Assembly: GCA_951406725.2 (NCBI GenBank)
Contig: OX597817.1
Coordinates: 130,758,001 to 130,822,000 of the forward strand
Reading direction: 5' to 3'
DNA: 64,000 nucleotides
DNA from: Octopus vulgaris
Taxonomy: Eukaryota
Part shown: positions 11,604-62,035 of the stretch, piece after piece
Position numbering within the stretch: position 1 is the stretch's first letter
How the letters are laid out: every line of letters begins with the position of its first letter
The notes under the pieces: generated by a model
What the model was told of the DNA's origin: nothing
The model's database searches: none
The model's input: the letters and a program-made list of their open reading frames with translations, nothing else
Translations under genes and position numbers: made by a program

Positions 11604-14600
11604 CTCCTAATGTGTGTGGGCAGACCGGTTTTTATCGGGACCTGGAGCACTTTCTAGTGACGTCTAAAACGTTAGTCTTGGTAGGAGACTTCAACACTAT
11701 TCTCGATGCGCGGGTTGATAGTGTAGGCTCGAACGATAGAAAAGGGAATCCTTGCTTCAAGGTTCTACTAGCGAGTTTTAATCTAGTAGACCGTTTTCGA
11801 CTGGATGAGCCGAACGTTCTACAGTGGACGTGGAGTAACAACGACGGCTCACGCAGATCGTATATAGATAGGGTATTTTTTAAGGAACGAGATAGGAATA
11901 GCGTTAGCTGTCCACAATTTTCTGTTGTGCCTTACACGGATCACAAACTTGTGACGTGTGAGGTACAGGTAGATAAATGCCATAGACAGGGTCCCGGATA
12001 CTGGAAAATGAACAAGTCTATTTTGACTTGTGAAGCTTTCCGTACCCGGATTAAGGAATTAGTCCAGAGGGCATTATGTGGCACCATCATTAATAATAGA
12101 TGGTGGATCGCCCTCAAAAGAGCCATCCGTTTGGAGTCCATTAGATTTAGCAAACAGCTAAGTTTAGATAGGACTAGAATAGAGGGCGAATTAGTGAAGA
12201 ACTTAGACGAGGCAATGGAATCTGGCTGTACATCTGGAGTGTTGGCAGCGAGAACGGTCTTGTACCGTCACCTCAACGCCAAGCATGAGGGGTGTAGAGT
12301 CAGAGCTAAGTTACATGCCGGGAAACGAGAAGGTATTAACGTTGCCGGATGGGCCCGTCGTGAGGAGAGTCAGAAGGGCAAAAAGTCCTGTATTAAGTCT
12401 TTAACTGACGAGCAGGGTCGCAAGATCTATGGACAGGAGGAGATGCAGAAGGTCCTTCACCAGCATTTCGCCCGGTTATTTGGGGATGGCGGTCCGCTCG
12501 AGCGAGGGGATGCCTTAAAGGACTTCCTAGCCGGTGGGCCGCGGCTCTCGACACGTGAGGCGGAATGCTGAGAAGGATCGATCTCTCCCGCGGAGGTAAG
12601 AGAGGTTATGGCCGGTTGCGCCGGGGAAAATAACTCTACTTAGTGTAGAGTTTAAGATTTTGGCCAAGGTGTTAGCAAAAATGTTGACGGCTGTCGAGGA
12701 GAAACTTGTCGGGAAGGCACAGACATGTGCAATCTCAGGCAGGTCGATCCAGGACAATCTTCACCTTCTCCGCTACACTATAGACAGGGTCGGGAAATTA
12801 GCCGGCAAAGGAGGAGCATTGGTCCATTTAGACCAAAGTAAAGCGTTCGATAGGGTAGACCATCGATACTTGGCGGCGGTCCTCGTGGCGGCTGTGCTGG
12901 GCCTTGGCTTTTGCGGGTGGATCTCAGCTATGTACAGCGGCATCAAGTCCACAGTCCAGATAAACGGTTACCTAACGGAGCCGTTTTCGATCAAGCGTTC
13001 AGTTCGTCAAGGGTGTCCCTTGTCCCCGCTCCTGTATGTTTTGGCTCTTGAGCCTTTGCTGCGGAAGTTGGGAGGCAACCCTAATGAAATCAGATGCGGT
13101 AAGTCTGTTTCTACCTATGCGGATGACGTCACTCTCATCGTGTCCAACGAAGCACAGCTACCTCGTGTAGAAGGTGCTCTCCGAAGATACGAAGCGGTGG
13201 CAGGGGCAAAAGTTAACAAGGACAAGTCCACCGGTTTGCGCCTCTGCACCTGGAGGAACAAGCCGATATCGTCCAGTGTTGTTGGGCACTGGACAGATGG
13301 TCCTGTTAAATTGCTCGGAGTTTGGTTTGGTTCAGACTCTCAGACGGAGAAGAATTGGAGCGAGGTAGCGAACAAGGTAGAAGCTATAGTACGGAAGTGG
13401 TCCGGAAGGCATCTTTCCTTGAAAGGGAGGGCGGAGGTGGTACAGATGCTTATATCCTCTGTCATCACCTACCGCCTGACCGTCGTGCCTTGCCTCGATT
13501 CGTGGTTAAGCAAGTTGGAATGACTCCTGTTCCGCTTTTTGTGGAGGGGAGGAAAGCCACTTGTGAGACGCTCCGTGTGTTGCCAGGAACCGCTAAAGGG
13601 TGGGCTGGGGATGCCTTGGCTGATGATGCGCAAGCATGCGTTGAGGCTGAGACATCTCTGGTGTCACCTGGAGGGTGATAAGGTGTGGAGTCCGCTGGCA
13701 GAGGAATTCTTCCCGCGACCGGCCTCTATGGAGAGATTTAAACCCGGTTTCATTAAAAGACGTAACCTGACTTTATGGCAGGAGTGCCGACAGGCACTCT
13801 GGCTGATCCACAAGGTGGGCAAGACCGGCAGCGGGAATACCACCTCGGTGTTCTATAGAGGGCTGATAGAGGCAAAAAATGACGACGTCCTAGGAGGGGC
13901 TCTCGGGTTCGATGAGAATCAACTTTCCAACCTGTTTAAGAAGACTTTCAGGCCGGGGTATTTGGACAATTACCAAAAATCGCTGACCTGGCAGTGCTAT
14001 AGTAATGCATTACCCATTCGCGATAAGTTATCCAGGCACGGAATGTCAGTGCCACCGACGTGTCCAAGATGAGGGTTGGACGATGAAACCGTTCAACACG
14101 CCTTTGTACAATGTCGGGAGCTGTCAAGCTTGATAAGTTACGTTGAACACGTGTTGTCGCATCTGGGACGAGTACAGCTGTCGGCTGGATCTATGATAAA
14201 GATGATACCGTCAACTGGACTCTCAAAGGAAGGTAAGGCTTGTTTTTACTGTACGGTGGCAGTACTGAAAGAGTGTGTGTGGAGAACCAGAATGGAAGGT
14301 TTAGTGACAGGGTCCTTTGTCTCTGGTCTCGGTTTGTTAAAATACTTCAGATATCATCTGAAGAGCAAGACGGGGTTAGAGAAGAGGAGCCTGCCACAGA
14401 AAGAGTATGTGAAACGTTGGAAGGATGTGATGAGAAAGGTGGGTGTTAGTAACCCAGCTTAATCATCGAAGAAAGGAAAAATTAGTTGCTTGGCCTTATA
14501 GGCTGCCGGGTTCAAAATTCGAAATCGGCACTTCCCATTCCTTTTCATTTTACATATGTTATAATTTCTAATGTCTTTTAAAACAAAAAAAAATAAATAA

Positions 14601-14795
14601 ACGCACTAAAGTTCTCGTTATAAAGGCAAAAGTAAGCCAAGTTTTCGTTTAAAGGCAAAAGTAAGCCAAGTTTTCGTTCGTGTTACATTATAATTAAATT
14701 AAAATTTTTTTTTAAAACTCTCATAACATTCTTTGTAATTGTTTGTCCTGTGATGTCCAATTCTATATAAATTCGCATGATCTTAATAAAGATTT
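11604..14795 (+). mobile_element. Tx1-clade non-LTR retrotransposon copy A: 5'-truncated, ORF2 pseudogene plus 3' UTR ending AATAAAGATTT
   Basis: APE motifs (LVGDFN, SYIDRVF, TDHKLV), RT motifs (LDQSKAFD, QGCPLSP, YADD), C-terminal CPR..DETVQHAFVQC zinc finger. In-frame stops and an internal deletion at ~12630. Highly similar to copy B. Confidence 0.95.
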
Positions 14796-14815
14796 CATAT
14801 TCAGCTAGCAGGCCT

Positions 14816-14874
14816 CTGCTACTCTAGATCGATGATGGGCAAAGACCCTGAAACATGCGTGTCTCTAGATGCAG
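14816..14874 (+). ncRNA. Type I hammerhead ribozyme motif with degenerate core (UCGAUGA)
   Basis: Stem I CUGC-(UAC bulge)-UCUAGA / UCUAGA-U-GCAG; stem II GGG-CAAAGA-CCC; GAAA at 14850; stem III ACA-UGCG-UGU; GUC triplet 14861-14863. Confidence 0.75.
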
Positions 14875-15705
14875 GCCTAGCTGTTGGGGGTATTTGTCTC
14901 CCCTTCGTAAATATATAAGGACACAGGAAATGTGTCGAGGTCGACAGGAAGCGTCGGTGTTTCATAGGGCTAAACAGCGGTGGTGTAGTTCCCTTACTGT
15001 TACTTTAAGTTGACAGTATACAACCACACTCCTCCCTCTCTCTCTCTCTCTATATATATATGGTGCAATGATGGTGTAATTTGATTGTTCATTTTGAATC
15101 GATAGAAGGTGTTTTTTTCTAATATTTCATGTATAAGCATGTATATATAGTGACATTGAAGGACACATCTTTCGATTTACAATCTGATATAGTAGAACAT
15201 TTAGTATATGTCTGTATATGTATATATATATGTGTGTATGTGTATATATATGTATTGCATGTTATATACATTATAATATTTTTATAATTTACTTCATCTT
15301 TACTTTTTAATTGTCACTTTAATTTTAACTTTCCTATGATATAAAATTTCAAGATGGTGTAATTTAGTTGTTCATTTTGAACCGATAAAAGTTTTTTTTT
15401 CAAATATTTCATGTATAAGCGTGTATATGTATATAGTGGTATAAATATCAACACAATTTTTCCCCTTCCTCCCTTATTTTTCTTTTTCTTTTTTTGTCTC
15501 TCTCCCCTTCTCCAAACACACAGACACACGCACACACACACGCACACACACACACAAACACACACGGACACACACACAGACACACACACACAGACACACA
15601 CACACACACACACACACATCCACAAAACGATCATAAAAAGTGGAAAGAATTCTTAAACCCCAAAAAGCATTTGACCATTCTCACAATGATAAAAGGAAAT
15701 ATAAT

Positions 15706-16946: not shown

Positions 16947-16996
<50 letters not shown>

Positions 16997-16997
<1 letters not shown>

Positions 16998-17416
16998 TTA
17001 TCGCCGTACTAATATGGCAATCTTATAAAAATAAGAAAAAAGCTGTCCGCTTATTAGCTCCATGAGGCCATCGCCTTAAGTTAGCTATTCGATACACAAA
17101 CTGTATCCATATAACCTTCGAACAAGGGAGGTCAGTCGCTCCACACTCCTTGACCGACAGCTACAGTTTGTGTATCGAATAGCTAACTTAAGGCGATGGC
17201 CTCATGGAGCTAATAAGCGGACAGCTTTTTCTTATTTTTATAAGAATGCCATATTAGTATGGCGATAACTATTAATTTCCAGGAACGCTGCCGTAATCTC
17301 TTTTAGAGAGACTTAGTAATTTTAATATTTCTATTATTGAAAACAAGTGGATGTATTCCACAGAAACTAGGTAAATAAAACCTTCGAACAGAGATAGTCA
17401 GAAGCGACACCTACTG
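16997..17416 (+). mobile_element. HHR retrozyme-like element, 5' portion with inverted 5' segment (host of Tx1 copy B)
   Basis: 16997-17105 is an inverted repeat of 17162-17270. 17162-17337 repeats at 22884-23060. Flanked by (TA)n. Confidence 0.85.
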
Positions 17417-17634
17417 ATTTTTCCTTGGATTACGTCGGATTATTTTACGCTGTAAGCTGTTATGTTAGTTCGTTCTGTTCTGGATTTACACGTACAGTTT
17501 TTGGATTATTAACTTGTGGAACAAAGTAATTTTCACCCTTCGGGGTAGAAAATTTCTTTTTATATATGAACTATTAACTCAGTGTGGAATTAACTTTTAT
17601 CTTGTCTCTTGTGACAAGTCACTTGCATTTTAAT

Positions 17635-19126
17635 ATGGATCTTGACTTAACGTCAAATTCTGATTTTCCCGAGATGGGAGAAGTTATAAATAATGGAAAG
17701 CAAAAGGATACAAAGGAGAAACAAAGTTTTTCGGAAGCCGTTGGAGGCAATGTTATAGAACTGGAAGTAGCAATGGGGGATCTCTTCAAGTTCAGAAAGT
17801 TCATACAAAGGAATGGAGAAGAAACGAGAATAATACCGCCCCCTGACACCTTACAAGCAATCCGTGAGAAGACGGTAATTTATAAGGTATATAATATTAA
17901 GGAAAAAAAGATTGCAGATGTAAAAAATGAATTGGTAGAACGGTGCATGGCACCAATTTGGAACAAGGTTCGCTATGTTGGCCGAGGAGTGAGAAGCGCT
18001 GCTATTGAAGCGCATTTCGAGTCGGCTAGCATAGCGAAGGAAATTTCAACTCAAACGTTGAAGAGTGCAGACATCCTGTTGCTGCCCACGTACTTAGGGC
18101 GCAGAACAGCTAAGGTAACAATAGAGGATATACCAACAGGTTACGATGTAATGTGGGCAGCAACAGCGGTCGTATTCGACGTAGAAGAGAAATTAAACAT
18201 TTTAAACATGAGGATGAAAGAGGCAAAATTTTGGAAAGGTCAGCAGCTTGAAATGATCGTTCAAGCTGACAATGCAACGCTGGAGAGTTTGCCAGACAGG
18301 GTCTTCGAGGGGGATGGACACACTATGCGGGTATCGGTGGAGGGACGTAGGCCCAGATGTTTCAAATGTGGGCAGAAGGGTCACGTCCGCTCAGAGTGCA
18401 AAAAAGAAAAAACCCGTTAATGCCCCCATTCAAACCGCTGTGGAGAACAAAGCAGACATCACAGCAACAACAAAAGAGAATACCCGGAAAAAGCAAAATG
18501 AAAGTCAAAAGGAGGAAAAGAAAATGAATGGAAAACAAAACGAAAACGAAAACGAGGGGGAAAATAATTTATCAAATGGAAAAGAACTGGAAGTAATGGA
18601 ATATACGACTGTAACCAACAAAAGGAAGAAATCCAATACCCCGGACTCCCCACCCCAAACAAAAAGAAAAACAAACGCAGAAGAACAACACAAAAAAATT
18701 ATCCAATCCCACCCCGCTGGCACTACTTTTGTAGGCCAGCATTTCATTAAACCCCAGCCCCCAACTTTAAAAGAATTAAAAAAAACCGATAGGTGCATTG
18801 CTTATAACACAAAAAACGAGAGAGTAGTTTGGTACATAAAAGCGAAACCAAACATAAAATGTTTCAAATCATCGGAAAAAAACCCGGATTGGAGGTATGC
18901 GAAGGTTGGAGAGGAGGAATGGAAGGAGAGACTCTTCCAACTACACGTGAGGGACAACCTGATTAAAGATGTCACACAAGAGGTGATAGCTGGAAAATTG
19001 AATATTAGCCCGGCAGCCACTCCATCCCAGAGCCCGGTGGCAACGCCGGTTAAATGCCCAGCAACAACGGAGAGTGTGGGGGAGGCAGGCAGACAAAAGC
19101 TGCCATGCTCCCTCTCACAACCGTAA
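17635..19126 (+). pseudogene. Tx1 ORF1 (gag-like, CCHC zinc knuckle), split by a +1 frameshift at ~18410
   Basis: ORF 17584-18420 (first ATG MDLDL at 17635) contains CFKCGQKGHVRSEC. Continuation in ORF 18272-19126 ends LPCSLSQP*, homologous to copy C. Confidence 0.85.
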
Positions 19127-19150
19127 GTAACAAACTTTCTTCATTCATCG

Positions 19151-22100
19151 ATGATTAAGTTGGGCTGTATAAATGTGCGTGGAATGGGGTCGAAATGGAA
19201 ACAGGCTTGCTTGCTGGACGACCTCAGGACACACAGAATAGATGTAGCCATTGTCACCGAGTCCAAAATGAGAGGAACCCAAGCGTTCTCGCATCTTCTC
19301 AATGGTTACGAGAAATTTATTTCTCCTAGCCGAGGAGGAAGTGCAGGCGTGACAGTCCTTATCAGGAAGAACTTGGACTTACAGGTAAGTACTGTCTTTA
19401 TGGACCCAGAAGGTAGGCTGGTTGTCCTCGATGTAACTCACGTGAGTAAGCAGTCCTTCAGGTTGGTAGCTGTTTATGCTCCTAATGAGGGTAGGCAGAC
19501 TGGTTTTTATCGGAACTTGGAGCACTTTTTAGTGACGTCTAAAACGGTAGTATTGGTAGGGGATTTCAACACTATCATCGATGCGCGGATAGATAGTGTG
19601 GGCTCGTCTGATAGAAGGGAGAAATTCTTGCCTCAAGGGTCTACTGACGAGCTTTAATCTAGTAGATCGGTTTCGAATGGATGAGCCGAGCATTCCACAG
19701 TGGACGTGGAGTAACAATGACGGCTCACGCAGATCGTATATAGATAGGGTATTTGTTAAAGAACGAGATAGGAATAGCATTAGCTGTCCACAATTTTGTA
19801 TTGTGCCTTACACGGATCACAAATTAGTGACGTGTGAGGTACATGTAGATAAATGCCATAAACAGGGACCCGGATACTGGAAAATGAACAAGTCTATTTT
19901 GGCTTGTGAAGCTTTCCGTAACCGGATTATGGAATTAGTCCAGAGGGCATTATGTGGCACCATCATTAATAATAGATGGTGGATCGCCCTCAAAAGAGCC
20001 ATCCGTTTGGAGTCCACTAGATTTAGCAACCAGCTAAGTTTAGATAGGTCTAGAATAGAGGGCGATTTAGTTAAGAACTTAGACGAGGCAATGGGATCTG
20101 GCTGTGCATCTAGAGTGTTAGCAGAGAGAACGATCTTGTACCGTCACCTCAATGCCAAGCATGAAGGATGTAGAGTCAGAGCTAAGCTACGTGCAGTGAA
20201 ACGAGAAGGTATTAATGATGCCGGATGGGCACGTCATGTGGAGAGTCAGAAGGGCAAAAAGTCCTCTACTAAGTCTTTAACTGACGAACAGGGACGCAAA
20301 ATCTATGGACAGGAGGAGATACAGAAGGTCTTTCAACAGCATTTCGCTCGGTTGTTTGGGGAGGGCGATCCACTCGAGCGAGGAGAGGACTTACAGAACT
20401 TCCTAGCTGGTGGGCCTCGGCTCTTGCCACGCAGAGCGGAACGCTGTGAAGGACCGATTACTCCTGCGGAGGTAAGAGGGGTTTTGGCTGAATGCGCCCG
20501 GGAAAAGTCGCCGGGACTGGATGGTCTGCCCTATGAGTTTTATTGTTGTATGCCGGACTTGTTCGGGGACATACTGGCAAGCGTCTACGCAAACTGGCAA
20601 CAGAATGGGAGGATTCCCAGTTCTGTGAGCCGGGGAGTTGTGACGCTGATCCAGAAAGACCCGAGCAAGGGGGATAATATTAGTAATTATAGGCCCATAA
20701 CTCTACTTAATGTAGAGTTAAAGATTTTGGCCAAGGTGTTAGCAGAAAAGTTGAAGGTCGTCATGGAAAAACTTGTGGGAAAGGCACAGACTTGTGCAAT
20801 CCCAGGCAGGTCGATCGAAGATAATCTTCACCTTCTACGCTACACTATAGACAGGGTTGGGCAATTAGCCGGCAAAGTAAAGCATTTGATAGGGTAGATC
20901 ATCAGTACCTGGCGACGGTTCTCGAAGCGGCTGGGCTAGGCCCTGACTTTCGCGGGTGGATATCAGCTATGTACAGCGGTATCAAGTCCACAGTCCACAT
21001 AAACGGTTACTTAACGGAACCGTTTTCGATTAAGCGTTCAGTTCGTCAAGGATGTCCCTTGTCCCCTCTCCTGTACGTTTTGGCTCTTGAGCCATTGCTG
21101 CGGGAGTTGGAGACGGTGAGATGCAATCCTAATGAAATCGGATGCGGTAAGTCTGTTTCTGCGTATGCGGATGACGTCACCTTCATCGTGTCCAACGAAG
21201 CACAACTAACTCGTGTAGAAGGTGCTCTCCGAAGATACGAAGCGGTGGCTGGGGCAAAAGTTAGCAAGGACAAGTCCACTGGTTTGCGCCTCGGCACCTG
21301 GAGGAACAAGCCGATATCGTCCAGTGTTGTTGGACACTGGACAGATGGTCCTGTTAAATTGCTTGGAGTTTGGTTTGGTTCAGACTCCCAGACGGAGAAA
21401 AATTGGAGCGAGGTAGTGACCAAGGTAGGAGCCATAGTTCGGGAGTGGTCCGGAAGGCATCTTTCCTTGAAAGGGAGGGCGGAGGTGGAACAGGTGTTTA
21501 TAGCATCTGTAATCACCTATCGCCTGACTGTCGTGCCTTGCCCCGATTTGTGGCTAAGCAAGTTGGATCGACTCCTTTTCCGCTTTTTGTGGAAGGGAGG
21601 AAAGCCACTTGTAAGGCGCTCCGTGTGTTGCCAGGAACCACTAAAGGGTGGGCTGGGTATACCTTGGTTAATGATGCGCAGGCATGCGCTGAGACTGAGA
21701 CATCTCTGGTTTCACCTGGAAGGTGATAAGGTGTGGAGTCCGCTGGCAGATAATTTCTTCCCGCAACCGGACTCTATGGAGAGATTTAAACCCGGTTTCA
21801 TTAAAAGACGGAATCTGACTTTATGGCAGAAAGAGTGCCGACAGGCACTCTGGCTGATCCACAAGATAGGCAAAGCCGGCTGCGGGAATACCTCCTCGAC
21901 ATTTTATAGAAGGATGGTAGAGGCAAAAAATGACGACATCCTAAGAGGGACTCTGGGGTTCGATGAGGATCAACTATCCGACCTGTTTAAGAAGACTTTC
22001 AAGCCGGGGTATTTGGACAATTACCAAAAATCCCTGACTTGGCAGTGCTATAGGAATGCTCTACCTGTTCGCGATAAGTTATATAGGCATGGAATGTCAG

Positions 22101-22520
22101 TGCCACCGACATGTCCAAGATGTAGGTTGGACGATGAAACCGTCCAGCACGCTTTTGTACATTGTCAGGAGCTCTCAGGCTTAATAAGTTACGTAGAACA
22201 CGTCTTGTCGCATCTGGGACGAGTACAGCTATCGGCTGGTTCTATAATGAAGATGATACCGCCAGCTGGACTCTCAAAGGAAGGTGAGGCTTGTTTTCAC
22301 TGTACGGTGGCAGTACTGAAAGAGTGTGTGTGGAGAACTAGATTGGAAGGTTTGGTGTGAGGATCCTTTGTCTCTGGATATGGTATGTTAAAATACTTCA
22401 GATACCATCTAAAGAGCAAGATGGATTTAGAGAAGAGGAACCTGACACAGAAAAAGTATGTGAATCGATGGAAGGATGTGATAAAAAAGGTGGGTGTGAG
22501 TAACCCTGCTTGGTCATCAT
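19151..22520 (+). pseudogene. Tx1 ORF2 (APE endonuclease, reverse transcriptase, CCHC finger), disrupted
   Basis: MIKLGCINVRG, VYAPN, VGDFN, SPGLDGLPYEFY, YADD, CPRC..ETVQHAFVHC. Frameshift near 19615, 28-bp deletion at ~20876, premature stop at 22358-22360. Confidence 0.92.
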
Positions 22521-22758
22521 GAAGGGAGAAAATAGTCTCTGGGCTCTTAGGCTGTCGGGTAAGAATCCTGACTGTGATATACCTAGCTGGCCAAAATCAT
22601 TTTTAATTTAAAAAAAAAAGGAGAAAAGTAAAGTCTAGTATCATAATCAATAATCAACATATGTAAATATCAAACGAACAACGTAAACTTTTTGTAATTA
22701 TGTTTTGTATTGTAATGTACTATCTCTGTAAGATTTTTATAATCATAATAAAGATTTT

Positions 22759-23060
22759 AGAAGCGACACCTACTGGGTCTGACTACGCTGCATTGACAAA
22801 GGGCAAATACCCTGAAACGCGTCTGTAGCTGTCGGTCAAGTAGTGTGGAGCGACTGACCTCCCTTGTTCGAAGGTTATATGGATACAGTTTGTGTATCGA
22901 ATAGCTAACTTAAGGCGATGGCCTCATGGAGCTAATAAGCGGACAGCTTTTTTCTTATTTTTATAAGAATGCCATATTAGTATGGCGATAACTATTAATT
23001 TCCAGGAACGCTGCCGTAATCTCTTTTAGAGAGACTTAGTAATTTTAATATTTCTATTAT
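22759..23060 (+). mobile_element. HHR retrozyme-like element, 3' portion (monomer ~363 nt once the Tx1 insertion is removed)
   Basis: Continues the 17162-17416 unit, contains the HHR, repeats 17162-17337 at 22884-23060 and ends in (TA)n. Confidence 0.85.
22779..22835 (+). ncRNA. Type I hammerhead ribozyme, U3-A8 core variant (UUGACAA)
   Basis: Stem I CUGAC-(UAC)-GCUGCA / UGUAGC-U-GUCGG; stem II AGGG-CAAAUA-CCCU; GAAA at 22814; minimal palindromic stem III ACGCGU; predicted cleavage after C22823. Confidence 0.88.
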
Positions 23061-28531: not shown

Positions 28532-28624
28532 TGTTGCTACACATCGCTGGTCACATTGCGCATTGTTTTAGCCTTCAAATGACACCGCCCCGCTGGCTAA
28601 GCGAGTAGGCCAATATATATATAT

Positions 28625-29844
28625 ATTATTTTTATTTTATCGCAATTTGATTTGTTTACATATTTCTCGATAAATTATGAGCGCTAGACGATATACCAGA
28701 AATCCCTAGTTTTGTCGGGACGTTCGGAGTCTGCGCAGTGATATGATTAGTTAGAGAGAGTAAATCATTAGAAGCACATGCTTCTAGTGAGTTAGGATCT
28801 CAGAAAAACAGGGCTCTCACTGACGAATTCTCCCTGAGCAAATAAATTATCTTTATTGCTGAAAAGAAAGAAACTGCAGTCTGAGAATAACCGAGTTAGT
28901 AAATGTTTTTATCTTCATTTCACTTAATTTATCAAGCTTCTGTGTTCCTAGCACATATTTCGCCTTAATGTACTGATATATGGAAAATATATGGCTTGTG
29001 TTAGTAATACCAGCGATTATAATTATTTTTATTTTATCGCAATTTGATTTGTTTACATATTTCTCGATAAATTATGAGCGCTAGACGATATACCAGAAAT
29101 CCCTAGTTTTGTCGGGACGTTCGGAGTCTGCGCAGTGATATGATTAGTTAGAGAGAGTAAATCATTAGAAGCACATGCTTCTAGTGAGTTAGGATCTCAG
29201 AAAAACAGGGCTCTCACTGACGAATTCTCCCTGAGCAAATAAATTATCGTTATTGCTGAAAAGAAAGAAACTGCAGTCTGAGAATAACCGAGTTAGTAAA
29301 TGTTTTTATCTTCATTTCACTTAATTTATCAAGCTTCTGTGTTCCTAGCACATATTTCGCCTTAATGTACTGATATATGGAAAATATATGGCTTGTGTTA
29401 GTAATACCAGCGATTATAATTATTTTTATTTTATCGCAATTTGATTTGTTTACATATTTCTCGATAAATTATGAGCGCTAGACGATATACCAGAAATCCC
29501 TAGTTTTGTCGGGACGTTCGGAGTCTGCGCAGTGATATGATTAGTTAGAGAGAGTAAATCATTAGAAGCACATGCTTCTAGTGAGTTAGGATCTCAGAAA
29601 AACAGGGCTCTCACTGACGAATTCTCCCTGAGCAAATAAATTATCGTTATTGCTGAAAAGAAAGAAACTGCAGTCTGAGAATAACCGAGTTAGTAAATGT
29701 TTTTATCTTCATTTCACTTAATTTATCAAGCTTCTGTGTTCCTAGCACATATTTCGCCTTAATGTACTGATATATGGAAAATATATGGCTTGTGTTAGTA
29801 ATACCAGCGATTATAATTATTTTTATTTTATCGCAATTTGATTT

Positions 29845-29848
<4 letters not shown>
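28625..29848 (+). mobile_element. Retrozyme-like tandem array: three 397-bp monomers plus ~33 bp, one HHR per monomer
   Basis: Units start at 28625, 29022, 29419 and 29816; CUGACGA cores at 28820, 29217 and 29614; flanked by (TA)n. Confidence 0.92.
28815..28886 (+). ncRNA. Type I hammerhead ribozyme (further copies at 29212-29283 and 29609-29680)
   Basis: UCUCA-CUGACGA-long stem II (uucu/agaa; agcaaauaa/uuauugcu)-GAAA-CUGCA-GUC-UGAGA; palindromic ACUGCAGU stem III; predicted cleavage after C28881. Confidence 0.85.
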
Positions 29849-29896
<48 letters not shown>

Positions 29897-36339: not shown

Positions 36340-36440
36340 TAAAGTATACTAGCCATCTCAATATGGCTAACCACTAAGGGTGGGTGTTACTGTAGCTTTT
36401 AGCCCCGATGTGGGTGTTACTGTAGCTTTTAGCCCCGATG
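36340..36440 (-). mobile_element. Fragment of the HHR retrozyme-like family, forming the 3' flank of Tx1 copy C; includes a 30-bp tandem duplication
   Basis: Minus strand catcggggctaaaagc and hairpin gccatattgagatggc match catggagctaataagc (22925) and gccatattagtatggc (22971). Confidence 0.7.
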
Positions 36441-39400
36441 TCTGTGCTTTCCCTACAAGTTTCTCCACGACAGTCGTCAACCTTTTTGCCAACACCTTGG
36501 CCAAAATCTTTAACTCTACATTAAGTAGAGTTATGGGCCTGTAATTACTAATGTTATCCCCCTTGCTCGGGTCTTTCTGGATTAGCGTCACAACTCCCCG
36601 GCTTACAGAACTGGGAATTCTCCCGTTCTGCTGCCAGTTCGCGTAGACGCCTGCCAGTATTCCCCCGAACAAGTCCGGCATACTTTGATAAAACTCGTAG
36701 GGCAGACCATCCAGCCCCGGCGACTTCTCCCCGGCGCATCCGGCCAGTACCCCCTCTATCTCCGCGGGAGTGATCGCTCCTTCATAGCACTCCACTTCAC
36801 GCCCCGAGAGCCGCGGTCCGCCGGCTAGGAAGTCCTTTAAGGCCCTCCCCCGCTCCAGCGAACCACCACTCCCGAACGCGCGAGCGAAATGCTGGTGAAG
36901 AAACTTTTGCATATCCTCCTGTCCATAGATCTTGTGTCCCTGTTCGTCAGTTAAAGACTTGATTGAAGCTTTGTTGCCTCTCTGACTCTCCACTCGACGG
37001 GCCCATCCGGCAACGTTAATACCTTCTCGTTTCCCTGCGCATAGCTTAGCTCTAACTCTGCAACCTTCGTGTTTGGAGTTAAGGTGATGATACAATACCG
37101 TCCTTGCCGCCATCACTCCGGATGCAGAGCCAGATTCCATTGCCTCGTTTAGATTCTTAACTAAATCGTCCTCTATCCTAGACCTATCTAACCTTAGCTG
37201 ATTGCTAAATCTAATGGACTCTGAACGAATGGCTCTTTTGAGGGAGTGCCACCATCTATTGTTAATGATGGTGCCACATAATGCCCTCTGTACTAACACC
37301 TTAATCCGGGTACGGAAGTCTTCACAATTCAAAATAGACTTGTTCAGCTTCCAGTACCCGGGTCCCTGTCTATGACACTTATCTAATAGCACCCTACAAG
37401 TCACAAATGTGTAATCCGTGTAAGACACAATGTGAAACTGTGGACAACTAAACGTATCCTTATCTCTTTTCCTAACGAATATCCTATCTATATACGATCT
37501 GCGTGAGTCGTCGTTGTTACTCCACGTCCACTGTGGAACGCTCGGCTCATCCAGTCGATAACGGTCTACTAGATTAAAGCTCTCTAGTAGACCCTTGAGG
37601 CTAGGGTTCCCCTTCCTATTGGTTGAGCCAACACTGTCGACCTGCGCTTCGAGGACAGTGTTAAAGTCCCCTACTAAGACTACCGTTTTCGACGTCACTA
37701 AAAAGTGCTCCAGATTCCGAAAAAAACCCGACTGCCTATTCTAATTCGGAGCGTAGACAGCTACCAACCTGAAGGACTGTTTACTTAGGTGGGTCACATC
37801 CAGAACGACCAGCCTGCCTTCTGGGTCCAGAAAGACAGTACTTACCTGCAAGTCCAAGCTCTTCCTGATAAGGACTGCCACGCCCCTTCCTCTTCCTCGG
37901 CTAGGAGAAATAAATTTCTCGAAACCATTTAGAAGAGGCGAGAACGCTTGGGCCCTGTTCATCTTGGACTCGATTACAATAGCTACGTCCACTCCGTGTG
38001 TCGTGAGGTCGTTCAGGAGACAAATTTGTTTCCATTTCGACCCCATTCCACGCACATTCACACAACCCAGCTTTGCCATTGTCGGAGAGAGAGAAAAAAA
38101 CTTACGGTTGGGACAGGGAGCATGACAGTTTAAATCTGCATGCTTCCCCTTCTTCCTCCCTCGTGGTCGTAGCTGCAGGGCTCTTAACCGGCGTTTCCAT
38201 CGGGCTCTGGGTAGGTGTGGTTGCCGGGGTTATAGTAAATTTACCCTCCAGTATTTCGTTAGTAACGTCTCTGATAAGGTTATTTTTTAAATGTTCTTGA
38301 AGTGTTTTTTCCTTCCACTCGTCTTCCTTTATTTTTGCAAAACGAGTGATCGACTTAGTGGCTGCAGACTTACTGAATAATTTCAGTTTTGAAAATTCAA
38401 AATACTTGAACACTCTATCATTTTTCTCGTCGAATGCTACAACCTTTTCATTTTTTTAATCAATTTTTTCCAATCTTGTTTTATGGGGAGGGGCTTGGCG
38501 AACTGTGTTCCAATGAATACAGTGCCGTGGGGGTAGGGCTGGGGAATTTGTTTTGTATGTATCTCTGCGGTGTTTGCAGATCTTTTCTTTGTTTGGGGAG
38601 GGGAGTCCAGGGTATTTTCTTTTTTCTTTTGTGTGTCACCTGTGTAAATTCCATTTGTTCATTTTTATCTTCCGTTTCGATTCCCTTCCTTGTCGCAGTC
38701 TTGGGGTCTTTTTCCGCCTTTTCTTTTTCTGTGTTTGAAGCACTTTGAGGAGGGCTTCGCTGTTTTTCTTTTTTTTATGCAGTTCGAGCGGACGTGACCC
38801 TTTTCACCACATTTGAAACACCTAGGTCTGCGCCCCTCCACTGGCACTCTCATTGTAATTCCCTCCTCAATAAATACCCTATCGGGTAAGTTTTCTAGCA
38901 CATTATTTTCTGCTTGAACGAGGAGTTCGAGCGCTTGTCCCTTCCAGTTTACCTCCTCTTTCCTTTTCATCTGCAGAATTGAGACTTTCTGCTCTACGTC
39001 GTACAGAACCGCCGCTGCTACCCACATTATATCATATCCTCTTGGAATGTCTTCCACATATAGTTTCGCAGTTCTTTTTCCCATATATGTAGGTAGTAAC
39101 ATGATGTCCTCACTTTTTAAGGTCATCGATGAAATCTCTCTTGCCACATCAGCCGAGTCAAAATGTGCTTCAACGGTAGCGCTGCGAGCACCTCGACCGA
39201 CGTAGCGAATTTTGCTCCACACCGGGGACAAGCACTTCTCGACTATTTCGTTCTTCACGTCCATTATTTTTTTCTCTTTGTTTCTGTAAACCTTGTATAC
39301 GACTGTCTTAGCCTTTATTTCCTGTAATATCGCTTGCGGCGGTACCAGTTTAATTTCGTTGCCTTCCTTTTTTACCAAGTTCCGGTATTCGAACAACTGT

Positions 39401-39748
39401 TCTATTTTAAATTCTACTTCCGTTATGGTTCCACCCACTGCGGCCGAAAAAGACTGTTTTTTAACCTCGACATCCTTCTGTTCGCCTTTTCTCATCACGG
39501 GAAAGTCGCTCCTCGACGCCAAGTCGAACTCCATTTCTCAAATTATGAGAACCAATTTTTCAATAAAAAAAAATTACCCTGAAGGTAATAACAATGTTTA
39601 TACACACAATTTTCAGCCCCGTAGGGCGAAAATTACTGTCACACAACGGACAACTGTTCAATTCACGAGCAAATACAAACAACGACGAACAAAAAACGAA
39701 CACACTCAACAAAATAGGCAGCTAACTTCTCAATACGCAGATGAAAGA
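36438..39748 (-). mobile_element. Tx1-clade non-LTR retrotransposon copy C: 5' end intact, 3' half deleted within the RT
   Basis: ORF1 38102-39534 (CFKCGEKGHVRSNC; ends LSCSLSQP*). ORF2 from 38079 (MAKLGCVNVRG) to GKAQT at ~36440. 5' end estimated by analogy with copy B. Confidence 0.93.
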
Positions 39749-40069
39749 GGGGTCCCTAGACGAGTCAAAACACCGGTTTTCGATGAAGGGAGACCTGTTT
39801 GCAAATATTTATTTAATGTTTTTTCCCAGTAACTTCCGTCACTGATTTCGAAAAACTGTCTGCAAGCAATAATAAATCTCTGAACGAGATGTAAACAGTA
39901 ACCTCTCGACAACGTAAATATTGATTAAGCTGGAGATAAAACTGTTATTAATCTGACAAACGCTGTAAATCTCTCATCATCTCAATACAATCCACACAAT
40001 TATCATACACAATATTTATTAACTTGGAAAGCTCATCAAAAGATGGGGTTTAATATAATCACACCGAGT

Positions 40070-42972: not shown

Positions 42973-43134
42973 AATTAGTTTATATAAAGTGTAAGTTATT
43001 GTTTCGTACAACTTTCAGGAAGAAAAATCATATTTATTATATTTTTGTTGAGACTTTAAATTACAAATAATGGTTGAATACAATTTCATTCCCAGCTTTT
43101 GGAACTAAAACTAAATATGTTTGCAGCTTACTTA

Positions 43135-44706
43135 AAATAAAAGCATGTAAGCGAGTCCTAGCAAGACCACTTCAGTCTCTCTTTCAGAGCTTCCTTGCAG
43201 CTGGCAAACTTGTAAGCAAGCTGAAAGAGGGTAAAATATACCCTAATCATAAAGGAGGTAGCAGAGCAGAGGCCAAAAGCTACAGACCTATCTCTCTGAC
43301 CTTTCACATCAGCAAAGTCATGGAACGAATAGTCATAAGAAAACTAGTTACCTTCCTTGAAGAAAATGACTTGCTGGCTGACAACCAGCATGGTTTCCGA
43401 CCAGGAAGAAGCTGCCTAACGCAGCTCCTACAACACTATGACTGGGTGCTGAAACAACTGCTCGATCACTCAAATGTGGAAGTGATATATCTTGACTTTT
43501 CAAAGGCCTTTCATAAAGTTGATCATGGAATGATATGTCACAAATTGCGTGATCTTGGCATAGTTGGAAAATTGGGAGAATGGCTTCATGACTTTCTGAA
43601 GGATAGAAGTCAGATGATAGTAGCCAATGACATGCAAATAGTGAGCAGTGTTCAGCAAGGCACTGTTTCGGGACCACTACTGTTGATAATGGCCATCTTA
43701 GATATGCCCTCAGCCACACTGAAAGTCACAATCACAAGTTATGCAGATGATACAAAAGTCTTATAGGTAATATAAAACCTTGAGTACACTATGCACCTGC
43801 AACATGAGCAGGATGAAATATACAAGTGAGCTGAAAAGATAGCATGCAGTTTAATGCTGAAAAGTTTCAAGTCTTGTACTATCAGTATGCAAAACTAAAT
43901 GCAGTACCAATTAAATACACTGAACCTGGAGGGATTGCAATCCCAGAGACACAGTCAGTGCGAGAACCGGGCATTTACATGAGTGATAGTGCATCTTTCC
44001 ATGTGCATGTTGCTAAGTTGGCAATGAAATGCAGGCGGCTGACTGGATGGATTCTTAGAACTTTTAGAACAAGAGATTGAGAAACCATGATGATCCTCTG
44101 GAGGACACTTGTCCTAAGCCACTTTGACTATTGCTCTCAGCTATGGACACCAACCAGTGTCACATTCATTGCAGGACTTGAGACAAAAAAAAATAAAGCT
44201 AGCCTCTATGTAGCATATAAGTTACTGGGAAAGACTCAAGAGATTAAGACTCTATTCCTTTGAGCGTAGGTGAGAAAGATATGTCATAATATACATCTGG
44301 AAGATCCTGGAGGGATCTTTCCCCAAACTTTGGCATCGAGAGTTACACATATACTAGAACAGGGCACCACTTCATAGTGCCAAGGACTTCAAATTTGCCA
44401 TCAAGATATAGGACAAGATATTGTGCTTCAGGGGACCACAGCTCTTCAATATCCTCCCGAAGGGCCTGAGAGAGCTGCATGGGGTGGATGTACGTGATTT
44501 CAAAATGAAACTGAACCTCGTACTGTCAAGTGTCTGAGATTAACCAACTTCATAGTAGGAGGTGCAGATGAGGGCTGCGGCATTAAACTCCCTCAAACGT
44601 AGCTTTCTAAAAAGAATTAGTAAAGTAAAATTATGAAGCAACACCAAATGGCGGTACCACAGCATGGCCACGACTCATGAGCTGAAACTAAATCAAATCT
44701 AATCAA
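43135..44706 (+). mobile_element. CR1/L2-group LINE, 5'-truncated, RT pseudogene
   Basis: SYRPISLT, NQHGFRPGRSCLTQL, IYLDFSKAF, QGTVSGPLL, SYADDTK, MQFNAEKF; short-repeat tail. Confidence 0.88.
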
Positions 44707-52099: not shown

Positions 52100-55000
52100 T
52101 CCTCCCACATTCATTTCCCAGTTTTTAGAGTTGGCACTATCAATATAGGCACATTGAAATGTAGGTCTAGTAAGACTGCAGAGATGCTTGAACGGAAACG
52201 TGTTGATCTATGCTGCATACAAGAGGTAAGGTTGAGAGAAGCTTCAGCCAGGGTCCTCACAGGCAAAGCATATATGTATAAAATCTTCTGGGAAGGTAAC
52301 AGTGTCGGAGCAGGGGTGTAGGCGTACTCATTGCAGAGAAATAGGTGGATAAGGTGAGAGATGTAGTCACAGAGTGCGATAGAGTGCTTAAGCTTAAGCT
52401 TGTATTGCAGAATAGTATAGCTATAATTATCTCTACCTACGCCCCACAAGCAGGCCTACCAAATAATCAGAAGGACCACTTTTATGATATCCTTCTACAG
52501 GCTAGCTCAAAGACGAATGACAATGACCTCGTCTTTGTAGCTGGAGATTTTAATGAGGATGTCGGAAGGCAATCTAGTATTTTCCATAGTGTCCATGGGG
52601 GCCATGGAACTGGTTCCCGAAACAAAGAGGAAACTACTAGGCTACTGGGATCCTGTGAGGCAAGCAATTTATTAATCTTCAACACCAACTTTAGGAAGCC
52701 AGTCACCTGATAACCTATCAATCAGGCGACTCTGCTAGCCAGATTGGTTTCGTCATCATCAGACAGCTGGATGCATAGTTGCTCTTAAATACAAAAACAC
52801 CGCTTGGTGAAGAATGTACCCCACCAACATACACTAGTCATCAGTGACTTCAGGCTCGAGGCCAGAAGGATGCCAATAAGCAAACCAATCCAGAAAAGAA
52901 GGATTTGGTAGCTTAAGAACCCTTCTCATGGTCAGAGATTTAGGGACATCCTCATTGAGAAATTTCCTGAGAGGGAGGAGCAGCTACAGATTTGTGACAT
53001 AGAGGGTAACTGAAAATTCCTGTGTGACAGCTTACTGAGCACAACAGATCTAAAATCTGTGGTTGGAGCAAAGTCCCTTCCAGACCATACGATAACGTGG
53101 TGGTGGATTAATACTGTAGATATGGCCATCAGAGTAAAGAAAGAGGCCTGGAAAGCCTGGAAGAATTGTGGTAGCAGGGTACTGTACCAGATAGCCCGAA
53201 GAGAGGCTAGGAGACAAGTATATATAGTCAAGGAAGAAGAAGAAGAAAAGAAGTTTACCAATGCTAAGCGACGTGAGGACCAATGAACTGTAGTTCTTCG
53301 GATTAAAAGACAGTGTGTGAGAGAGAATTGTTATGTCACACGCTAGAAGCGTATCCGCATGAATGATGGAGCACTTGTATTTAATGATTCTGCAAAGAAA
53401 GAGGCTTTGAGATGCCATTAGGAAAGACTGCTGATCGTGGAGAATGAGTGGGAGGAAGAAAGCCTATCAAATTGTGACCCAGCTGAGGGACCAGCTACCC
53501 GAATTGATAGCACTCTGGTAGATAAAGCAATTAAGGATATGAAGTCAGGGAATGCCCCCGCCACCGGTCCATCAGGAGTCACTGCTGAAATGCTTAAAAT
53601 GTCTGGTTGTGTGGGTTATAGTCTAGTCACCCGTATTGTAAATCAAGCAGTTCACGAAACGGTCATACTCAATGACTGGTGTAGCAGCACCATAGACAGC
53701 TGCTACAAAGCTCAAGGTGATGCTTTAGACAGATATAATTACAGGGGTAGCAAATTGCTGGATCAGGTGATGAAGGTCACGGAGAGGGTCATAGCAAAAT
53801 TAATTAAGGAGAGAGTTAGCCTAGATGAGATGCAGTTTGGTTCTGTGCCAGGTAGAAGCACCACTGATGCTATATTTCCGGTAAGGCAACTACAGGAGAA
53901 ATACCTAACCGAAGATAAACCTCTGTACTTGTATTTTGTTGACTTGGAAAAAGACTTTTACAAGGTCTCCTGATCCCTTATCTGGTGGCTAATGCGCAAA
54001 CTAGGGATAGACGAGCGGTTAGTAAGAGCTGAACAGGCCCTGTACAGGGATGCTGTTAGTAAGGTGAGGATCGGCAACGAGTATAGGGAAGAATTCCAGG
54101 TAGAGGTAGATTTCACCAAGGATCAGTCCCAAGCCCCCTCTTATTCGTTATAGTACACCAGGCAATAACAGAGGAATTCAAGACTTCCCCTGGGAGCTCT
54201 TCTATGCTGATGACCTTACTCTCATAGCTGAACCACTCCGAGAACTAGAGAAGAAATTTCTGGTGTGGAAGCAAAATCTAAAATCAATGGGTTTGGGAGT
54301 CAATGTAGCAAAAACCAAAGTCCTAGTAAGTAGGAAGACGGGGAAATCATAAACCCCCTTCAGGTAGATGGCCCTGCTCGATCTGTAGAAAAGGTGTAGG
54401 TAGAAACTCCATAAGATGTACCCAGTGTAAGCTATGGACGAATACAAGGTGCAGCAATATCAAAGGAATGTTAACCGGGATGATAGTTTTTATGTACGGT
54501 AGATGCACAGGGGTAATAAACAGCGAAGTGGTTCAGAAAACAGATTACATCACATACTAGGGGGAGAAACTAGAAGTAGTTGATAGTTTCCGCTTCCTAG
54601 GTGACCAAGTATGTAGTGGGGTGGATGCTCTGAGAGTGTTGCCACTGGGCAAAGTTCAGAAAGCTCCTACCGCTGCTGGGGACAAAGGGCATCTCGCTCA
54701 GAGTGACAGGTTGACTGTATGAAGCACGTGTGCGAACTACCATTCTACACGGAACTGAAACATGGCTCATGACTGTTGAGGACACTTAGGCTTGAAAGAA
54801 ATGAAGCTAGTATGATCTACTGAATGTGTAATGTCAGTGTGCACACACGACAGAGTGTAAGCGTCTAGCGAGAAATGTTGAACATAAGAAGCATTAGATG
54901 AGGTGTACAAGAGAGACAGCTGTACTGGTATGGTCATGTGCTGCGTATGGATAAGTAGAGCTGTGTGACAAAGTGTCACACCCTAACAGTGGAAGAAACC

Positions 55001-61110: not shown

Positions 61111-62035
61111 CTGATACTCATACCCGGAATTTGGAAAAATCTCTGCTCCAAATTAATTGACAATTTTCAAGGATTTGATGGTCTTCATGAATGTATGTAT
61201 GTATAATAGTTAAGAAGGCAAGAAGACAGGTGTATAATACATACAGAGAATAAGTGACGAGAGCAGACCAAGAACCTAAAATTGATTGTCAAATGAAAGG
61301 ATACATAATCTGTGCAAATAAAAGTTGAATATAGGTAATGTATCAGCTGAACTAATGAAAATATACTAAAATAGATGTTCTGATAGCTGCTTAGGTATCA
61401 AACCGTTTATATTAATAATAAAGTGAACATAAAATGAAATAAATTCAGTAGAAAAAAATCCCCAAAAGACTGCTGTATGGACTTTCGTAGTGATACCTCA
61501 TAGACAGGTAAAAACCCTGATTTTTATGAACATGGTATAAATGATTCTGTATCTTTGCAGTGACACATAATTGGAAGATCTTGGTGGGTGTAGCACCTAC
61601 TTTGGGGCTGAAATCCATACCAAACACACACACTGAATGCCATAACACCTGCGAACAGGTGAGGTCATCAACATCCCCTTGTCGGCTTGGCAGATGGTCA
61701 ACAGCGACGCCTGCTGGACTCGGCTACTCCACATTGATAAGGTGGAAATACTCCGAAACCGGTCTGTGGTTGCAAAGCCAGCAAGCGAAAGGTGATGACC
61801 TGTCTGTTGGAAGGTGTTATGGACGCAGAAATGTGGGGCAAAAAGAAAAACTTTCTTTGCTAATGTGCTGAAAAATAGACGCTAAATCGTCTAACCACAT
61901 ATTTTTAGTTTTATTATTACACCACATGTCGAAACGAGGAGAGCAAGCTAACAGAAATTCATAAAATATAGTTATCCCCGTATCTGTTCCGATTTCTGGA
62001 TTAATCCGAAAAGGATTCTTCCTTCATCAACGAGG

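Follow-up and report, generated by a model that had tools for sequence, protein, structure and literature searches.

Two Tx1-type LINE copies in a 64,000-nt stretch of the Octopus vulgaris genome (contig OX597817.1; termed the window, with positions counted from its first base) end shortly upstream of a hammerhead ribozyme motif. This raises the question of how the 3' end of the element RNA is made and what brings the elements to such sites. The initial annotation had suggested that read-through RNA is cut by the hammerhead of the host repeat and that the host sequence at the resulting 3' end guides reinsertion into the same family. The sequence observations behind this suggestion were confirmed: copies A and B lack a poly(A) tail and end 5-6 nt past a polyadenylation hexamer, and the GUC sites located 68 nt (C14863) and 65 nt (C22823) downstream on the same strand fall into type I hammerhead-like folds. 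In the following, R-A, R-B, and R-C denote three hammerhead repeat families, A, B, and C the element subfamilies inside each of them, and +1 the first base of the host unit at the insertion point.

Copy B (17417..22758, + strand) is of full length but frameshifted, and is 98.4-98.9% identical to 15 other near-full-length copies. Its ORF1 (17635..19126, +), containing a zinc knuckle, is broken by a frameshift near 18410, and its ORF2 (19151..22522, +), encoding an APE endonuclease, a reverse transcriptase (RT), and a zf-RVT domain, has several frameshifts. The end of the 3' UTR (22647..22752, +) contains six UGUA motifs and the poly(A) hexamer, which is located at 22747-22752, 6 nt upstream of the element end. 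Copy B is flanked by a perfectly matching 17-nt target duplication. The 5' copy (17400..17416, +) represents nt 1-17 of the host unit and, as we infer, the 5' leader of the copy B RNA; the 3' copy (22759..22775, +) begins with the host +1 at 22759. Since the duplication encloses copy B, hammerhead B belongs to the host and lies outside the element. The R-B host repeat comprises an upstream part with a promoter-like region (17162..17399, +) and a downstream part (22759..23060, +) of a 364-nt non-LTR retrozyme-like unit with a TA microsatellite at its end. It is preceded by a 5'-truncated inverted R-B arm (16994..17166, -), the 5' end of which coincides with the predicted cut site inside a 5-nt microhomology. 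This coincidence is possibly due to chance, because such ends do not pile up genome-wide: only 3 of 77 non-Tx1 arm ends fall within 0..+5 of the cut, which is no enrichment.

Copy A (11604..14796, +) is 5'-truncated, and no duplication was seen at its 5' end. Its hexamer is located at 14785-14790, the element ends 5-6 nt later, and the R-A host repeat (14797..15031, +), a sequence family distinct from R-B, follows with its +1 at 14797. A third, more distant Tx1-type copy (36438..39783, -), of which only the 5' part is present, sits at the +1 (39784) of an R-C repeat with a promoter motif at -62. The window contains several further repeats. A distant Tx1-type copy at 33-2330 (-; 67-70% identity), the 3' end of which lies just outside the window (L129), is tail-less and followed by a SINE-like repeat rather than a hammerhead. 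At 61728-61770 (+), a third hammerhead, which belongs to an R-B-like family and has a U3-A8 core, is not adjoined by a Tx1. Three tandem copies of a 397-bp unit, 99% near-identical, occupy positions 28620-29854 between TA repeats, and a scan of this unit found no hammerhead. Two further reverse transcriptase fragments (Pfam RVT_1; 43071-43766 and 53422-53973, both +) have no nucleotide match to the Tx1 copies.

The elements contain the Pfam domains Exo_endo_phos, RVT_1, zf-RVT, and zf-CCHC, and copies A and B both encode APE endonuclease, RT, and zinc-binding domains. The best solved relatives of the endonuclease are L1 endonucleases. The closest protein matches (39-42%) are all unnamed and do not include a named Tx1 protein; the label Tx1 is a candidate assignment that follows the ORF architecture and the naming in the initial annotation. 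Target-specific insertion with a duplication, a trait of the Tx1 clade, was found as well. The endonuclease hairpin loop differs by only 0-1 residue among copies from R-A, R-B, R-C, U1, and U2; between U1-type and R-B-type elements, the identity amounts to 95.6-96%, with three endonuclease differences in common. Such a near-constant loop across five targets would favour position plus pairing over sequence reading. This is weak evidence, because the loop is not a modular determinant of specificity according to the accessible part of PMC1950540.

To what extent, then, are the two junctions in the window representative? Of 28 B-type 3' ends found genome-wide, 21 lie at R-B +1, with 18 continuing into the hammerhead and 3 into the duplication and then another copy. 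The remaining ends are located at the first base of a U1 gene (1/28) or at sites with 3-7 bases in common with the U1 start (6/28). The 17-nt duplication was seen in 12 entries of the B-type junction table. Among the best 30 A-type ends, 12 lie at R-A, 5 are followed by another hammerhead (two of R-C type and three called by eye), and 13 are at neither; hammerheads L077, L081, and L087 were assigned by eye only, as the hammerhead scanner missed them. A hammerhead flank is present in 3 and absent in 17 of 20 further A-like loci, mostly short and older. For subfamily C, 24 pattern matches comprised 22 real ends and 2 chance matches. Seventeen of these ends are at R-C +1, continuing into the R-C hammerhead (14) or into the R-C leader and then another element (3), and five are at U2 +1, where there is no ribozyme; U2-inserted and R-C-inserted copies of this one subfamily are 99.2-99.3% identical. 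R-B offers 1091 exact empty target sites. The arrays surrounding the R-B insertions end differently, and truncated copies are accompanied by duplications or target deletions of their own; therefore, the insertions are independent. With 21/28 B ends and 12/30 of the best A ends at one host base of their own repeat, the association cannot be attributed to chance and is systematic. For these elements, the insertion point is the first base (within -4 to +1) of U1, of U2, or of one of several hammerhead repeats.

Further Tx1-derived sequences were noticed at these loci. More Tx1 families with different 3' UTRs are stacked at the same +1 sites (L180, L182, L185, L189, L192), which suggests a wider radiation. 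An element of ~1.6 kb with only an ORF1-like frame (L302:442-2050, L303) is stacked with C elements at R-C +1; we take it to resemble half-L1 elements. Broken Tx1 pieces of several families are piled up inside a U1 gene cluster (L194, L117; C18 U1 cluster). In an A-like subfamily (L126, L163, L164, L165, L174), the off-target flanks share another start triplet, a hint of an additional host family.

We analysed the upstream regions of the hosts with a motif matrix trained on 15 promoters chosen from 14 U1, 20 U2, and 14 U5 loci of this genome. The motif is located at -57 to -60 in 15/15 training promoters, and the best match of the matrix lies at -57 to -62 in 11/11 host upstream regions, which represent about six families and are thus not independent. 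The background p values range from <0.0002 to 0.016 each, R-B having the weakest match of the hosts (3.6 bits, p 0.016). In the window, this degenerate snRNA promoter motif match occupies 17341..17350 (+), at -57 from the insertion point, and a TATA-like box is present at 17372..17380 (+), at -28 from the copy B insertion point. Most hosts have such a box near -30, and the same holds true for U1, U2, and U5. At ten off-target sites, one comparable motif match and two TATA boxes at -30/-31 were detected. Plain TATA-directed targeting, an early idea, was replaced by the snRNA motif. Two off-target insertions (L084, L086) are located 30-31 nt behind a perfect TATA box in the absence of the snRNA motif, and their target sites are possibly ordinary Pol II starts. 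Judged from these sequence matches, the hosts likely share an snRNA-type promoter, which the element borrows.

The 5' ends of the element copies bear on the same point. In four full-length copies at U2 +1, located on two contigs, the U2 duplication is followed by R-C nt 1-14. U1 nt 1-17 are found at the 5' end of two U1-type copies, one of which (L115, both ends read) sits at a non-U1 site. Overall, the host leaders on full-length copies measure 14-18 nt. Carried leaders that start at +1 and lie at foreign sites were found for R-C and U1; no such case was seen for R-A or R-B. Since host leaders are located behind foreign duplications, the element RNA likely starts at host +1 and borrows the host promoter. 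The nick would then be positioned by the promoter complex, putatively SNAPc, or by DNA opening at the start site. An snRNA promoter is also reported for newt satellite 2, a hammerhead repeat (as cited in the accessible text of PMC2220036). With insertion at the predicted host transcription start, the 65-nt gap between element and ribozyme (58-67 nt across hosts) is likely the host's own leader length, measured from start to cut.

We then consider the ribozymes themselves. Hammerhead B (22787..22829, +; predicted cut after 22823, i.e., host +65) is a type I hammerhead of the U3-A8 variant with 6/6 pairs in helix I and 4/4 in helix II. Its minimal palindromic helix III consists of one pair and a two-base palindromic loop and is absent from the predicted fold. 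Hammerhead A (14823..14869, +; predicted cut after C14863, 68 nt after 14795 and host +67) is predicted to be weak or dead: the copy in the window deviates from the canonical core at two positions (U3, C4), its sister copies at one or none. An Rfam scan of the window returned no family at gathering score. The U3-A8 core is known from Penelope-like elements, and lone minimal hammerheads of this kind showed no in vitro cleavage (PMC4209133, accessible parts). A second hammerhead directly downstream is absent in 14 of 18 B flanks, including that of copy B, where none was found in the R-B remainder to 23060. Hammerhead B is thus predicted to be a lone minimal motif that needs a partner to cut. The claim that the hammerhead cuts read-through RNA stands in part: such cleavage is likely, as one unit described below (L292/L301) ends at the GUC cut, but the core of copy A is mutated and hammerhead B stands alone.

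With tandem periods of 364 (R-B) and 352-353 (R-C), arrays of 1-5 units, and, in R-B, inverted 5' arms and TA-repeat ends, the hosts appear to fit non-LTR retrozymes, i.e., tandem non-coding units with a type I hammerhead each. Six ORFs beside the hosts, examined for an autonomous Penelope ORF, gave 0 Pfam matches. Five R-C loci, representing 3 distinct junctions, stop exactly at the cut. In a census of R-C junctions (370 normal copies), 3 distinct junctions lie at the cut, 3 at -3, and 0 at +3, the +3 pattern being half-sensitive and 2 of the -3 junctions running into TA repeats. These junctions are only suggestive of self-cleavage. At L314/L315, L322/L323, and L327, the R-C leader ends exactly at the cut and is followed by an unrelated ~100-nt sequence ending in TA repeats, possibly a ligated-RNA chimera spread by the repeat machinery.

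How far does the element RNA extend into the host, and what is this extension used for? The junctions of truncated copies are informative in this respect. In 5 of 6 informative copies, i.e., those with a target start unlike the usual host start of their family, the 3' junction is overwritten with host bases of the element's own family (L076, L077, L078, L083, L108); L086 is the exception. The overwriting spans 1-4 bases, or about 9 in one case. Overwritten junctions lie in older copies, and single changes could be mutations. Where an R-B array still shows an empty sister unit, the sequence following the element agrees with that array. Because the overwriting is short and the flanks are target-derived, a short read-through likely primes, and no stretch approaching 65 nt is copied or required. 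Thus, the part of the initial claim that the RNA carries target-matching host sequence stands: the RNA probably extends beyond the element end and probably contributes its first few host bases at insertion, but the ~65 nt up to the ribozyme are not needed. Hops from host to host require only 4-6 shared bases, and a U1-embedded donor gave rise to new copies (L115, L147).

An ordinary 3' end is at hand. The hexamer lies 4-9 nt from the element end in 8/8 ends tested, and polyadenylation cleavage falls 10-30 nt after the hexamer; therefore, the 3' end is expected at host +5 to +25, a range that extends to about the length of the duplication. The hexamer thus offers a ribozyme-free 3' end. UGUA occurs at 6 per 100 nt in the 100 nt ahead of the hexamer of copy B compared to 0.42 in the body (0 of 5000 shuffles), and this excess is present in 4 of 8 ends and absent in 4. 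No poly(A) was seen at the genomic junctions, as expected if priming takes place inside the read-through; this absence is also a gap in the evidence. Contig X1, guessed to be RNA (depth 4.6; strand and ends not shown), covers Tx1 and the junction and reaches 41 nt beyond the cut, and contig X6, likewise guessed to be RNA (strand and ends not shown), stops at +18. None of the loose ends listed for 8 runs of contigs guessed to be RNA has poly(A), 30 more lying outside the listing. As such contigs reveal neither strand nor ends, we do not count them as evidence.

Taken together, we consider the following explanation the probable one. An snRNA-type promoter complex, or DNA opening at the start site, would position the nick at the host start. 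The element RNA would begin at host +1, capturing the host leader, and continue beyond the element end, where the first 4-9 host bases would pair with the nicked strand and prime reverse transcription; the same pairing would tie a lineage to its host family. The 3' end would most likely arise by ordinary cleavage 10-30 nt after the hexamer, and the hammerhead would contribute a secondary, partner-dependent cut on longer read-through RNA. The ribozyme is predicted to cut some element transcripts, and is likely not needed for the element to jump. As a tentative variant, the address may consist of two keys, the snRNA promoter complex setting the nick and the host bases on the RNA 3' end picking the promoter family, with this 3' end trimmed by the host hammerhead in repeat hosts.

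The ribozyme-centred reading, in which the Tx1 RNA 3' end is produced mainly by the host hammerhead and a ~60-nt host tail guides reinsertion into the same family, now appears quite unlikely. Most young copies do precede a hammerhead (18/28 B ends, 14/22 C ends), U2-inserted copies descend from a repeat-embedded donor, and the R-C loci that stop at the cut fit cleavage; yet 3 junction loci are likewise found at a control position located 3 nt ahead of the cut, and of the 53 on-target ends examined only one terminates at the cut itself (0/18 B, 0/13 A, 1/22 C). This is the case of L292/L301, a 5.8-kb unit enclosing a full C element. Its start lies no more than 2 nt from one cut site and its blunt end coincides with the next, where a short 5'-truncated element is attached, as in RtcB-made U6/L1 chimeras (PMC6789731, accessible parts). 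L292 can equally well be read as a host-only leader chimera that later received an insertion at +1; at this locus, the cut end did not act as a primer guide. An attempt to trace its 58-nt piece to a donor by alleles failed, since a subtype matching the local arm exists, and a search of 70 kb did not recover the lost 3' end of the element attached there. What speaks against a cut-defined guide is that near-identical copies of the same subfamily occupy U2, that U1 likewise serves as target and U1-embedded donors transpose, although neither gene has a ribozyme, and that 4-6 shared bases suffice. In addition, the flanks beyond the duplication are target-derived and match their own arrays, lone minimal hammerheads did not cleave in vitro in the accessible account of PMC4209133, and 14/18 B flanks are without a second motif directly downstream. 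The claim that the cut defines the guiding 3' end is therefore not upheld.

It is likewise unlikely that there is no tether to the promoter at all, with the endonuclease nicking many pyrimidine-purine steps, only copies behind promoters being transcribed, and pairing moving the lineages between hosts. U1, U2, R-A, R-C, and others have their first 2-4 bases in common, the hop from R-C to U2 shares 6 bases, and many off-target sites share 3-7 bases with a host start in the absence of the promoter motif, all of which would be expected without a tether. But any site past +1 would be transcribed, yet all hosts are targeted at the start, and the R-B start is unlike that of U1, the target of its 95.6-96% identical relatives, yet the -57 spacing is kept. 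Hitchhiking, i.e., one old insertion multiplied together with its repeat by Penelope-type machinery without any Tx1 targeting, is highly improbable. The youngest B clade (99.6-99.9% alike) does reside in one host subtype at 7/8 independent loci, and L109 and L301 resemble inverted insertions of the repeat type that enclose a Tx1. But this subtype is the commonest, accounting for about half of the first 100 of the 1091 empty sites listed, and a tracking of host subtype by element lineage beyond the duplication was rejected, as 7/8 against a background near one half is not significant. Truncated copies with their own duplications (L096, L107) and the 5'-truncated independent insertions in general largely refute hitchhiking; tandem stacks and several element families occur at one site, and U1 and U2 are not copied in this way. 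We thus return to a nick positioned by the promoter, followed by short pairing, as the preferred reading.

Tx1-clade LINEs such as Keno, Tx1L, Tx1-Mar, Kibi, and Koshi insert at fixed sites in multicopy genes or transposons (PMC4494074, PMC4640811), and members targeting U2, satellites, or other transposons are known (PMC4640811, PMC4494074, PMC8869645; accessible parts in each case). The octopus elements resemble them in the combination of APE endonuclease and RT, long duplications, and tandem stacking (PMC4494074, PMC4640811). They differ in that Keno inserts before U2 nucleotide 39 (PMC4640811) and the elements described here at U2 +1, and in that one lineage spans unrelated hosts with a shared promoter type. 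The accessible parts of PMC4494074 and PMC4640811 do not mention a hammerhead host for target-specific Tx1-clade LINEs. The hosts, in turn, resemble non-LTR retrozymes in their 170-400-nt tandem units, type I hammerheads, Penelope-like inversions, TA targets, and dimer-dependent motifs (PMC7229834, PMC4209133, bioRxiv 2026.07.22.740005; accessible parts). The snRNA promoter of newt satellite 2 is a further likeness; what differs is that several invertebrate families here have a putative snRNA-type promoter and serve as LINE targets; the terms promoter, snRNA, and Tx1 do not occur in bioRxiv 2026.07.22.740005. In SART1Bm and R1Bm, accurate priming is helped by target sequence that the RNA carries from downstream, a likeness to the short read-through described here (PMC7265360, accessible part), whereas our host is a Pol II small-RNA unit and the hexamer is flush with the end of the element. 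Co-transcription from a host promoter and a self-cleaving RNA nearby are shared with R2 (PMC4494074, accessible part). R2, however, has its own HDV-like ribozyme at the 5' end, whereas here the hammerhead belongs to the host, lies on the 3' side, and is absent from U1 and U2; with the ribozyme in the host beyond the duplication, we found no element-encoded ribozyme required for mobility.

For Ty3 and Dictyostelium TRE5-A, promoter factors rather than target sequence set the position relative to the transcription start. Both use Pol III TFIIIB/TFIIIC promoters, whereas the elements described here would use a Pol II snRNA (SNAPc) promoter. In the open-access full texts searched, no paper was found to describe Tx1 insertion in hammerhead repeats or at snRNA +1. 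The terms hammerhead, snRNA, and retrozyme do not occur in a 2026 octopus repeat annotation (PMC13282606; see also PMC8557442). Promoter-start targeting would be a new feature among target-specific LINEs, target-specific Tx1 itself being already known.

Target-specific LINEs are usually explained by sequence recognition through the endonuclease. One lineage at the first base of unrelated hosts with the same promoter type points instead to the snRNA transcription machinery together with short RNA-DNA pairing. Such promoter-start targeting can be tested directly and bears on the use of LINEs for targeted gene insertion. A borrowed ribozyme end would add interest, but the data do not require it; if the two-key variant were true, the LINE would parasitise both ends of a ribozyme retroelement, its promoter and its 3' processing, and could switch hosts with almost no protein change. 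For the repeats themselves, our results give the first hint in the literature searched that snRNA-type promoters drive invertebrate hammerhead repeats, and the leaders captured in transposon copies may be used as fossil maps of their transcription start sites.
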